Shown here one piece after another: positions 8,291-60,595 of a stretch of 64,000 nt of DNA. Numbering within the stretch: position 1 is the stretch's first letter; each line of letters begins with the position of its first letter. The position numbers and the translations under genes are program-made. Source of the DNA: Octopus vulgaris (lineage: Eukaryota). The DNA lies in assembly GCA_951406725.2 (NCBI GenBank), contig OX597824.1, positions 28,706,001 through 28,770,000 on the forward strand, given 5' to 3'. Below the pieces are notes generated by a model. The model did no database searches, was not told the origin of the DNA, and worked only from the letters and a program-made list of their open reading frames with translations.

Positions 8291-8410
8291 AGTTTTGTTT
8301 GGCTTAAGGCTATAGTAAAAGACACCCGTCCGAGGTGCCACGCTGTGGGACTAAATTAGGAACCATCTGGTTGCACTGCCAACTTCTTGTTACACACCCA
8401 TGCCTGAGCC
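8291..8410 (-). mobile_element. SINE family D 5' fragment, diverged
   Basis: ggctatagtaaaagacacccgtccgaggtgccacgctgtgggact is the reverse complement of the family D head. Confidence 0.65.
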
Positions 8411-34057: not shown

Positions 34058-34643
34058 AATCCTTTCTACTGAAAGCACAAAGCCTCACATTTTGAAGGAA
34101 GAAATTAAGTTAATTACATCGAGCCCACTACATAACTGGTACTAATTTTATCGGCCCGAAAGGATGAAAGTCAAAGCCGACCTCGGTAGAATTCGAACTC
34201 AAAACTTAATGGTAGGCGAAATAACTATTTCTTTACTGCCCACAAGGAAGCTAAACACAGAGGGGACAAAGAAGGACAGACACACGGATTAGGTTGATTA
34301 TATCGACCCCAGTGCATAACTGGTACTTATTTAATCGACCCCGAAAGGATGAAAGACAAAGTCGACCTCGGAGGAATTTGAACTCAGAGTGTAGCGGCAG
34401 ACGAAATACTTATTCCTTTACTGCCCACAAAGGGCTAAACACAGAGAGGACAAACAAGGACAGACAAACGGATTAAGTCGATTACATCGTCCCCAGTGCG
34501 TAACTGGTAATTATTTAATTGACCCAGAAAGGATGAAAGGCAAAGTTGACCTCGGCGCAATTTGAACTCAGAGCGTAACGACAGGCGAAATGCTGCTAAG
34601 CATTTCGCCCGGAGTGCTAACGTTTCTACCATCTCGCAGACTT
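34058..34643 (-). mobile_element. SINE family E trimer
   Basis: Three bodies and one head; aatataataaatgtg repeated at 34030 and 34649. Confidence 0.88.
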
Positions 34644-34779
34644 AATAGAATATAATAAATGTGAATGTAAGTATGTCAGTGTGTCACACTTTTTCCACTT
34701 AACCCTTAGAAGCTGTATCTCAACATATCATACCATTTTGGAATCAGGCTGTCTCCTTGAGTAAATTAAAAAAAACTCC

Positions 34780-36123: not shown

Positions 36124-36606
<483 letters not shown>

Positions 36607-38000: not shown

Positions 38001-38088
<88 letters not shown>

Positions 38089-38219
38089 ATATATATTGTA
38101 TAGAGGGCATTATTACACATAAATGCCTCACACTAAGAGGGACAAAGTCATTACTACTAAAATTACACTAATCATACCTAATGCAGTTCTTCAAAGCAAG
38201 ACATTTAAAAAATGAATTT

Positions 38220-38276
38220 AGTTCTGTATCACCGTGATTTCACATTTAACTTACGTCTATGATCATCAGCAGAACT
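38220..38276 (-). ncRNA. type I hammerhead ribozyme motif
   Basis: Exact reverse complement of 38737-38793. Confidence 0.85.
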
Positions 38277-38736
38277 GATTCTGAACACATCATAAATAAA
38301 CCACCAACCTTACCTAGCGAAGACGAACAGAAACATCTATTCACTCTGGCCAAGCACATGGAATGTTTATAAATCATATATTCGATAAATGGCGGGCTTT
38401 TTCGAACTGCATGTCGGTTAAGAAAAGTATTTCGGAATAAATTTAACAATTAAGGATAACTTCTTAATAAGGAATCTTAACAAGAAATTATCAGGTAGTT
38501 AGCGTGAAAAACCTCATAAGAGAAAAGAATTCGAAAATAATTTTTTTCTTTTGAACAAATTAATTATATTTATATTGTATAGAGGGCATTATTACACATA
38601 AATGCCTCACACTATGAGCCCGCCATTTACCGATTATATGATTTATAAACATTCCATGTGCTTGGCCAGAGTGAATAGATGTCTGTTTGTCTTCGCTAGG
38701 TAAGATTGGTGGTTTATTTATGACGTGTTCAGAATC

Positions 38737-38793
38737 AGTTCTGCTGATGATCATAGACGTAAGTTAAATGTGAAATCACGGTGATACAGAACT
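38737..38793 (+). ncRNA. type I hammerhead ribozyme motif
   Basis: AGUUCUG-CUGAUGA-ucauagacguaaguuaaaugu-GAAA-UCAC-G-GUGA-UA|CAGAACU; perfect 7 bp stem I; predicted cleavage after 38786. Confidence 0.85.
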
Positions 38794-39046
38794 AAATTCA
38801 TTTTTTAAATGTCTTGCTTTGAAGAACTGCATTAGGTATGATTAGTGTAATTTTGGTAGTAATGACTTTGTCCCTCTTAGTGTGAGGCATTTATGTGTAA
38901 TAATGCCCTCTATAAAATATAAATATAATTAATTTGTTCAAAAGAAAAAAATTATTTTCGAATTCTTTTCTTTTATGAGGTTTTTCACGCTAACTACCTG
39001 ATAATTCCTTCTTAAGATTCCTTAAGAAGTTATCCTTAATTGTTAA

Positions 39047-39098
<52 letters not shown>

Positions 39099-39108
39099 TT
39101 AACAATAT

Positions 39109-39270
<162 letters not shown>

Positions 39271-39279
39271 TTATATTTA

Positions 39280-39328
<49 letters not shown>

Positions 39329-39934: not shown

Positions 39935-40439
39935 AACTTGTATTTTCGAAAAAAAAATTTATCCTGCATTAAATATAAATTTAAATGTTCACTTCCGGAC
40001 TCTCCCACTCTGTGAGAGCCTCAGTTCAAATCGCCCGTGTCTTGATTGGGCTGGAGTATTTCTATTTTGGATGTATTTGGGGTACTTAATTGTGCTCATG
40101 TCTTAGTCTTTTGCTTCTTCCATGGGTATGAGTAAGTATCTCATTTATTTCTATGCCACATTTATCACTGACGAAGGGAGTGTTCTCACGTTCTAACCCT
40201 GAAATCGGTCCGATATGGTAATAATGGAATTTTTTAGAAATTTCTGTCGGCTTTTTTTCGAGTAGCGTGCGTATTGTAATAAATTATATAGTAATGGACA
40301 ATATGTCCAATTTTAGGTATATTTGGCTTTTTCGTTTGCCCTTATTTATAAGTTGTTTATAATTTTAACCTTTAAAGGTATTTTTTAATATGCTGGCCAT
40401 TGATAAAAAATTTTTTTCGAAAAAATGTTTATCCTATAT

Positions 40440-40622: not shown

Positions 40623-41262
40623 CAGACAGATAGAGAAAGAGACAGAGAGGGAGAGAGAGAATAATTTCTCACGTTACATATACAATGTACTTTAAACAAT
40701 ATATTAATAAATTAAACCACATTTCGTAGCAAAGAGGATTCTTTTTTACAGAAGGCAAGGGAGAGAGAGAGAGAGAGAGAGAGGGCAGAAGAGAAAAAGA
40801 GAAGGAGATAGAGACGATACACTCTAATGCCATGTTCCTTAATACATTAAAGCGAACAGTGAATTGTGCTTATGTAACCAACTGTCAGCGTACATTTTTG
40901 CCACTTAAGACTGAATAAATACCAATTGTTTCTTTCTCACACGGTGTTGCTATTCACATTATCCCATTATTTAAAATATAGGATGAATCGACAAGAAGGT
41001 ATTATCTTCGCTTACTGAAAGATCTATATGATAAGAAAAGGACATGACAAAGAGTTATACAGATAGAGACACGTAAGCAGCTTGTAAAATCGCATCCGCC
41101 ATGATTTTCCTTTTCGTTTCTTCGCATTTAGATTATCCTGAGTGTCACATTGACCGCTTCGTCCTTTCGTGAATTAGAAAACATAAGCCTTGATAGAAAA
41201 ATCAAAGCGATATTGTTGAAGTGGTATAGTGGCTGCATATTACGCAATAGGTTTGTAAGTGT

Positions 41263-41678
41263 TAAGGCGGCGAGCTGGAAGAAACGTTAGCACGTTGGGC
41301 GAAATACTTAGTGGTATTTCGTCTGCCGCTACGTTCTGAGTTCAAATTCCACCGAGGTCGACTTTGCTTTTCATCCTTTCGGGGTCGATTAAATAAGTAC
41401 CAGTTACGCACTGGAGTCGATGTACTCGACTTAATCCGTGTGTCTGTCCTTGTTTGTCCTCTCTTTGTTTAGCCCCTTGTGGGTAGTAAAGAAATAGGTA
41501 TTTCGTCTGCCGCTACGTTCTGAGATCAAATTCCGCCGAGGTCGACTTTGCCTTTCACACTTTCGGGGTCGATTAAATAAGTACCAGTTACGCACTGGAG
41601 TCGATATAATCGACTTAATCCGTTTGACTGTCCTTGTTTGTTCTCTCTGTGTTTAGTCCCTGTGGGCAATAAAGAAAA
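41263..41678 (+). mobile_element. SINE family E dimer with 14 bp TSD
   Basis: TSD aggtttgtaagtgt at 41249-41262 and 41679-41692 encloses head plus two bodies. Confidence 0.93.
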
Positions 41679-60060: not shown

Positions 60061-60445
60061 AGAGAGTTTGTATGTGCGTGTGGAAGAGGGCTGATGATCT
60101 TATATATTCACATGCATGTATATGCGTGTCCATATACATTTGTGCTTAAATTTATATATGCATATAAAGACAAACACACATACACTTTCATTTATATGGG
60201 TGTATATGTGTGAACGTGAATATATACATATGTGTGTACATACCCACACACACACAATCACATATATATATAAGAAAGGAAATATACGAGAAAATGGAAT
60301 AGAAAATGGAATATACGAGAAAATTAATTGCTTACAACGTTCGTTTAGACCCATCTTTCATCGATCCCTTGACGGTGGGATAAACACATACGGCCATAGC
60401 CAATGAGCCTGCTTCATCAGTTTACGTCTAAGAACATACCCAAGA

Positions 60446-60595
60446 CTGAAGACGAACAAATACTACCCTTACAGGAAACCTAATGGAGAAATTGAATATA
60501 TCCACAAATGTTCAACCCCCCCTCCTCCACTGTAATTAGAACTTGGTTTCAGACATTAGCAGAAGGGTGCTATACTCTCTGTCAGTATAGAGATC
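60446..60595 (+). pseudogene. Penelope-like element RT thumb fragment
   Basis: LKTNKYYPYRKPNGEIEYIHKCS, then frameshifted TVIR..LVSDISRRV, like the PLE motif PYRKPN..YI...SNHPP..I....I.RR. Confidence 0.7.

Follow-up and report, generated by a model that had tools for sequence, protein, structure and literature searches.

In L1 twin priming, both target strands prime on one RNA and microhomology seals the resulting inversion. Each cDNA covers its own part of the template, with no overlap between the two, and the position of the second priming site varies. For Penelope-like elements (PLEs), the accessible text of PMC8557442 states that the tail is often present at one end only. The one-ended tail is already known in this qualitative form, and the available parts of PMC8557442, PMC3846280 and PMC11167929 either propose self-priming to account for it or leave the step open; fold-back self-priming was put forward for rotifer Penelope elements (PMC3846280). 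PMC11167929, in the sections available, describes two internal reverse transcriptase (RT) start sites bounding the tail, cutting of both strands followed by their extension, and a protein predicted to dimerise. Mobilisation of retrozymes by PLEs has also been proposed (PMC7229834; Li et al., 10.64898/2026.07.22.740005, in their accessible portions). The Li et al. text, as far as available, takes at least two consecutive co-oriented hammerhead ribozyme (HHR) units as the mark of an active copy and reports cleavage for 1 of 9 predicted elements. How PLE inverted repeats and tails form and how retrozymes are mobilised are open questions according to the available text of PMC8557442, PMC11167929 and PMC7229834.

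Here we describe a locus in a 64,000-nucleotide stretch of Octopus vulgaris DNA (contig OX597824.1, positions 28,706,001 to 28,770,000; hereafter the window). The permuted inverted repeat reported here in an earlier note, A-x-B-A′ on the left facing rcA-rcB on the right, is real. The left arm comprises one 479-bp unit followed by the first 44 bp of the next, a direct repeat with a spacing of 479. The 436-bp right arm is the reverse complement of 38437–38574 joined to that of 38096–38398, with identities of 95.6% (182 columns) and 96.8% (313 columns), or 96–97%. The two arms, which meet with a 2-nt overlap, differ by 12 substitutions in 467 columns and 2 indels. No open reading frame of at least 90 amino acids lies inside the element, the sole frame beginning at 38994 and entering the TA tract. 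There is one HHR per strand, and the two co-oriented HHR units of Li et al. are not found at this locus. The 22-nt inverted mini-copy in the right TA tract is possibly a product of abortive priming. Elsewhere in the window, tandem SINE-like units of ~184 bp at 34104–34645 and 41262–41661 lie in opposite orientation ~6.6 kb apart and are 88% complementary.

Table 1 Features of the window locus (38005–39325) and of two PLE families of the same genome. Positions are those of the window unless a locus identifier precedes them.
Feature	Position	Strand	Basis or note
(TA)n microsatellite, left target side	38005..38095	.	sequence
Left-arm outer end at start site S2 (short, tail-less)	38086..38096	+	exact base blurred by TA microhomology
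Left arm, 479-bp unit + 44 bp, HHR-sense on minus strand	38096..38618	-	
Type I hammerhead motif, extended helix I	38214..38281	-	predicted cut between 38227 and 38226
S1–S2 segment ("B" tail), internal to left arm at the window locus	38437..38574	-	
Second-unit start in left arm (A′)	38575..38618	-	
Inversion junction	38617..38618	.	2-nt microhomology AG
Right arm, 436 bp, permuted unit, HHR-sense on plus strand	38617..39052	+	
Type I hammerhead motif, same sequence as left-arm motif	38732..38799	+	predicted cut after 38786
Predicted hairpin, 3′ foot = S2	38880..38915	+	folding and reading of sequences, without formal covariation count
Tail, outer end of right arm	38919..39052	+	
Predicted hairpin ~12–15 nt 5′ of S1	39000..39034	+	
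Right-arm outer end at start site S1 (long end)	39046..39052	+	
(TA)n-rich right target side	39050..39325	.	
22-nt inverted mini-copy of S1 end within right TA tract	39085..39106	-	
Very young PLE family, intact frame, Hydra-type	L120:5150-8650		727 aa
Very young PLE family, intact frame, RT + GIY-YIG	L162:268-4960		781 aa

The window locus is one ordinary copy of a repeat family and has no special standing. A 30-mer of the ~480-bp unit has 719 exact matches in its own genome, against 0 for the control, and a 26-mer has 1531 matches at up to 2 mismatches; a genome search with the unit itself gave 146 matches among the 40 scored of 1539 candidates. The family consists of a dispersed non-coding unit of ~480 bp (479–480) whose arrays reach 6–7 units, and at least two consecutive co-oriented HHR units occur in the longer arrays, for example in L023, L025, L099 and L100. 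Parts of the unit are also present in contigs from three runs that are presumably RNA. A sister family (L176:5522-5866; L177-L196) has a unit of ~495 nt that is 68% identical over 333 nt, with 2210 first-look candidates; a pattern search for a putative related family gave no match. For an snRNA-type promoter, a matrix built from U2 snRNA upstream regions (15 distinct regions, not realigned), which provides a weak test, reached a maximum of 3.7 on the HHR strand vs a shuffle mean of 6.3. The U2 snRNA genes themselves (L197-L216) are numerous, with 48 matches and several tandem clusters, and their upstream regions fall into at least three sequence types with a common short motif near −58.

For an unselected set we took the first 100 listed matches of the 30-mer (from contigs 1 and 2 and the beginning of contig 3), which correspond to 62 loci, all of them mapped. 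Outer ends in these loci sit at two fixed unit sites, S1 and S2, ~130 nt apart, and 90 of the 91 outer ends touch (TA)4 or longer. Single arms account for 25 loci (14 ending at S1, 11 at S2) and opposed arms for 33, while 4 lack an arm pair, their ends being unclear or split. In every simple inverted locus with two classifiable ends (28/28; binomial p = 2.5e-9), one end is S1 and the other S2, and the RNA-sense 3′ ends point outward. The other five opposed-arm loci are L036, where two inverted copies are adjacent in a single TA tract (929–1543, S2/S1 then S1/S2), L079, which is S2/S1 with a nested LINE, and three loci with one unclassified end. The pairing is also seen in 11 further inverted loci, picked by similarity to the window and hence not unbiased. 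Predicted hairpins, retained in the sister family, have their 3′ feet at or close to S1 and S2. The sister family has homologous S1 and S2 sites, and the upper stem of the hairpin at S2 is kept there with double changes.

This regularity also bears on whether the structure arose in assembly or from a fold-back read. Assembly is difficult where inverted repeats lie between long TA tracts, and the junction of the window locus itself is in none of the public-run contigs listed. Against an artefact, the outer ends coincide with sites that are constant in the family, the geometry recurs in 33 of 62 loci, the arms differ at locus-private sites, and contigs of three public runs join left to right arm at other positions; we therefore consider an artefact virtually out of the question. 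The joints in the public runs are read as inversion junctions of other copies, and one of the runs may derive from the source sample.

Several observations suggest that both arms of a locus were copied from the same RNA. Arm divergence, calculated for the 33 of 39 inverted loci with enough arm overlap, is 1.4% within loci vs 5.1% between them. At 33 subfamily-diagnostic columns, 15 of 458 pairings are discordant within loci, compared with 5296 of 13971 between loci. Locus-private alleles occur in both arms in 14 cases, 8 of which come from L084, and in one arm only in 51. The inner arm ends lie within 15 nt of each other in 10 of 39 loci, where 1.7 are expected (0/10,000 shuffles), and 21–2218 nt apart in the remaining 29, the window locus having an offset of 220 nt. 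The 39 inversion junctions comprise 24 with overlap, 4 that are blunt and 11 with extra bases. At the window locus, the differences between the arms probably arose after insertion, since nearly all of the alleles concerned are found in at most 2 loci; one difference lies in an A/G tract and is polymorphic across the family, and both arms carry an allele found in 5 loci. The unique flanks of L079 hold short mutual inverted repeats ~13 nt beyond the TA tract (990–1002 and 8303–8317), as judged by eye. Inverted duplication of the flanks as a general feature was discarded, the 39 other inverted loci giving only 3 simple-repeat matches.

The single-RNA reading is weakened by the fact that common alleles also fit gene conversion or two RNAs from one source locus. 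If two separate RNAs, or two successive events, primed the DNA ends independently, transcripts of one dominant source locus would carry common alleles too, and the use of either site by single-arm copies is in keeping with such independence. Independent priming predicts, however, ~50% same-site pairs where 0 of 28 were found, and it sits poorly with arms that are concordant across several coexisting subfamilies and with the excess of coincident inner ends, making this explanation very unlikely. The coincident ends in 10 of 39 loci speak for fold-back, discussed in the available text of PMC3846280, in which a small palindrome lets one cDNA, or an antisense template, double back and serve as its own template. 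Fold-back requires coincident inner ends and nested arms, whereas 29 of 39 loci have offset ends; by itself it leaves the presence of one S1 and one S2 end unexplained. At the window locus, the tail-less arm is the longer and the inner ends are offset, contradicting fold-back unless a later deletion removed the centre. Overall, we judge fold-back to be very unlikely, and prefer priming of both arms on one RNA.

What form that RNA took is indicated by the extent of the arms. Because 58 of 59 arm passages continue beyond the predicted HHR cut site, the template would not have been a linear cleaved monomer. The proposal made earlier of a multimeric or circular template is borne out, with arms exceeding one unit and arrays of 6–7 units. 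Arm ends are mildly enriched just before the cut site (~7 per 1000 nt at 211–270 vs ~3–4.5 beyond). In the 4 informative loci, no allele went with a particular unit number, which fits a circle and a homogeneous multimer alike. We lean slightly towards a circle, the alternative being an uncut multimer.

Both of the opposing HHRs described as intact are present, and they are identical over 68 nt within a 130-nt identical stretch. The word intact does not fully apply, because pair 10.1-11.1, which closes helix II, is U·U in the window subfamily rather than the conserved G10.1-C11.1 (PMC4209133, available text); the Rfam HHR models at gathering thresholds gave 0 matches over the whole window. The U10.1·U11.1 combination may weaken cleavage. 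In relatives this pair is G-C, A-U or G-U, with G-C and a longer helix II in the sister family, and it is unpaired in 11 of 18 motif rows. The identity of the two motifs, noted earlier against flanks that differ, does not support selection: given 14 differences in ~467 arm columns, a clean 68-nt stretch has a probability of p = 0.13–0.17, so chance is sufficient.

Whether the motif is conserved among copies, a doubt raised in the same earlier note, can be read from the family. The core elements CUGANGA, GAAA and UH are kept across ~59 loci, the exceptions being N7 (U in 26, G in 22 and C in 11) and rare single-locus changes; pair 2.1-1.1 is G-C in 51 of 59 loci and A-U in 6 of 59. Across 18 distinct motifs, diverged relatives included, 95.5% of cells pair, against 25–42% in slid controls. 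Both sides change in 7 of 21 pairs, a number reached in 0 of 500 shuffles, although this control overstates significance because the 18 rows are related; helix I accounts for changes on both sides in 4 of its 6 pairs. Helix III, being invariant and palindromic, gives no covariation information. Two HHR copies are predicted to be able to pair through this helix, and such pairing is described for dimer-acting animal HHRs (PMC4209133, in its available sections). Folded in isolation, the HHR has a minimum-energy structure other than the active one, with weak z-scores (−0.05 to −1.5). Together, the conserved core and compensatory changes indicate that selection acted on the motif in the source lineages. 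Elsewhere in the window, other repeats hold two more hammerhead-like motifs of type I whose helices are plausible, at 36395–36475 (-) and 40160–40230 (+); the latter resembles a motif in L158.

Folding of the whole locus on both strands predicts a ~300-bp hairpin (−579 and −582 kcal/mol), in which 55 of 55 tested HHR nucleotides pair with the opposite arm. The hairpin part of the previously suggested self-silencing structure is thus upheld as a prediction for both strands, and the notion of purposeful silencing is not. A selected hairpin, acting through blockage of the ribozyme by its antisense arm and as a source for siRNA or piRNA pathways, would agree with the full sequestration of the HHR in the predicted duplex on either strand and with a geometry in which the antisense arm is transcribed first in both directions. 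Yet the window arms have drifted by the 12 substitutions in 467 columns and 2 indels given above, and the identity of the HHRs is expected by chance. HHR-sense transcripts begun within an arm would run outward, without the antisense arm. About half of all copies have this geometry (33 of 62 unselected loci) with junctions that vary from copy to copy, as for a routine by-product of insertion. We regard a selected function as highly improbable; the ~300-bp hairpin would instead be a by-product that forms only in read-through transcripts, and it may still have a silencing side effect. With one HHR per strand, the window copy would release no RNA of unit length, which probably makes it a dead end.

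A decayed PLE RT fragment with a Y.KP...YIH motif lies in the window at 60330–60535 (+), with a loose HHR-like match on the minus strand. It led us to a young Hydra-type PLE with many near-identical copies, a unit of 3.36 kb, a 727-aa open frame and a minimal HHR. The motifs RWK, DKT and CxCx5C, reported for the Hydra clade, are present in its protein, and searches against Pfam and PDB gave no match. In 15 of 15 inverted loci (13 picked for opposed ORF matches and two found inverted), a short end is paired with a long end in (TA)n, the two being offset by 70 nt; in two of these loci the inner ends coincide. A second family, encoding RT and GIY-YIG, has a 40-nt tail and the same short/long pairing in 2 of 2, together with an extra upstream open frame of up to 479 aa.

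The earlier attribution of the locus to PLE pseudo-LTRs with a tail holds for the PLE-type tail of ~130 nt between two fixed starts, and is not supported for pseudo-LTRs of a coding PLE. No PLE ORF, such as the RT/GIY-YIG ORF that marks an autonomous PLE, was found beside or between the arms in 85 mapped loci. Homology to the pLTR of an autonomous PLE was assessed against the two young families of this genome: BLAST gave no similarity between the unit and the Hydra-type family, and weak AT-rich matches (E 0.03–0.25) amounting to no clear similarity with the second. The link between unit and PLE therefore rests on the insertion footprint. An 11-mer common to the unit and the Hydra-type tail was set aside, as it is not conserved in the sister family.

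In L079 and L123 the long inserts proved to be LINEs of the L1/Tx1 type rather than PLEs. LINEs of this type lie within the unit at L079:2157-7443, at L123:2252-3959 and 1-1761, and in L136 and L141; they are co-oriented with the HHR and sit within ~25 nt of one another, some 45–75 nt upstream of the HHR core. Among the best 30 LINE 3′-end loci, 4 abut the unit, two of them at loci already mapped. The LINE in L079 has two long open frames, and many other LINE copies precede the apparent 5′ end of another LINE in ~5.3-kb tandems.

Taken together, the window locus is probably an insertion of a non-coding hammerhead non-LTR retrozyme, written from one RNA by a PLE RT/endonuclease starting at both (TA)n ends. 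In the mechanism we propose, a PLE protein, probably a dimer, would bind the RNA at the two hairpin-marked sites and nick both strands of the (TA)n target. One DNA end would then prime at S1 and the other at S2 of the same RNA. As both arms copy overlapping sequence, strand displacement would be needed, with the trailing enzyme displacing the leading cDNA. Joining of the two cDNA 3′ ends by microhomology would yield inverted arms arranged head to head, only one of which ends in a tail. This mechanism agrees with the in vitro data in the available text of PMC11167929 on two start sites, extension of both strands and a predicted dimer; the choice of start site did not differ between the strands there, which counts against the two-site assignment. 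The evidence leaves us evenly divided on a stricter rule, whereby one PLE complex commits each break end to a different hairpin-marked start and the retrozyme RNA is a circle copied for several rounds. If true, it would explain the one-ended tail and head-to-head repeats of PLEs generally and replace the self-priming model. A 480-nt template, two mapped starts and a countable rule with allele sharing make it testable in the existing in vitro PLE assay.

As in L1 twin priming, both target strands appear to prime on one RNA, with a microhomology join; unlike L1, the retrozyme has two fixed sites, and the stretches copied into its two arms overlap. Our literature search, in which most subscription papers and supplements were outside the scope, returned nothing on the 480-bp family or a one-site-per-end rule. 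A strict rule of this kind with allele sharing is not stated in the available text of PMC8557442, PMC3846280 and PMC11167929. Neither fixed ends at two sites nor insertions with two arms are reported for retrozymes in the accessible parts of PMC7229834 and Li et al., and the word "inverted" has 0 occurrences in PMC7229834.

The closest parallels are with PLEs and with metazoan non-LTR retrozymes. Head-to-head arms, a one-end tail, two RT start sites, (TA)n targets, an HHR and partial tandems are all shared with PLEs as described in the available sections of PMC8557442, PMC3846280 and PMC11167929. The intact PLEs of this genome likewise have an inverted 5′-truncated arm, a one-end tail and a (TA)n target. 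Unlike PLEs, the retrozyme has no ORF and its tail is ~130 nt rather than the 30–40 nt of PLEs (available text); no homology was found between the retrozyme and the ends of the two intact PLE families compared with it. With metazoan non-LTR retrozymes (PMC7229834; Li et al., as far as available) it has in common an AT-rich non-coding tandem unit bearing one type I HHR, dispersed copies ranging from monomers to multimers, and PLEs as the proposed helper. The 480-bp unit exceeds the 170–400 bp of studied animal retrozymes and falls within the 51–972 bp of Li et al. in the accessible text. The family has the sequence traits of a non-LTR retrozyme, with predicted self-cleavage. Overall, it is best read as working like a PLE-mobilised non-LTR retrozyme, and not as an autonomous PLE.
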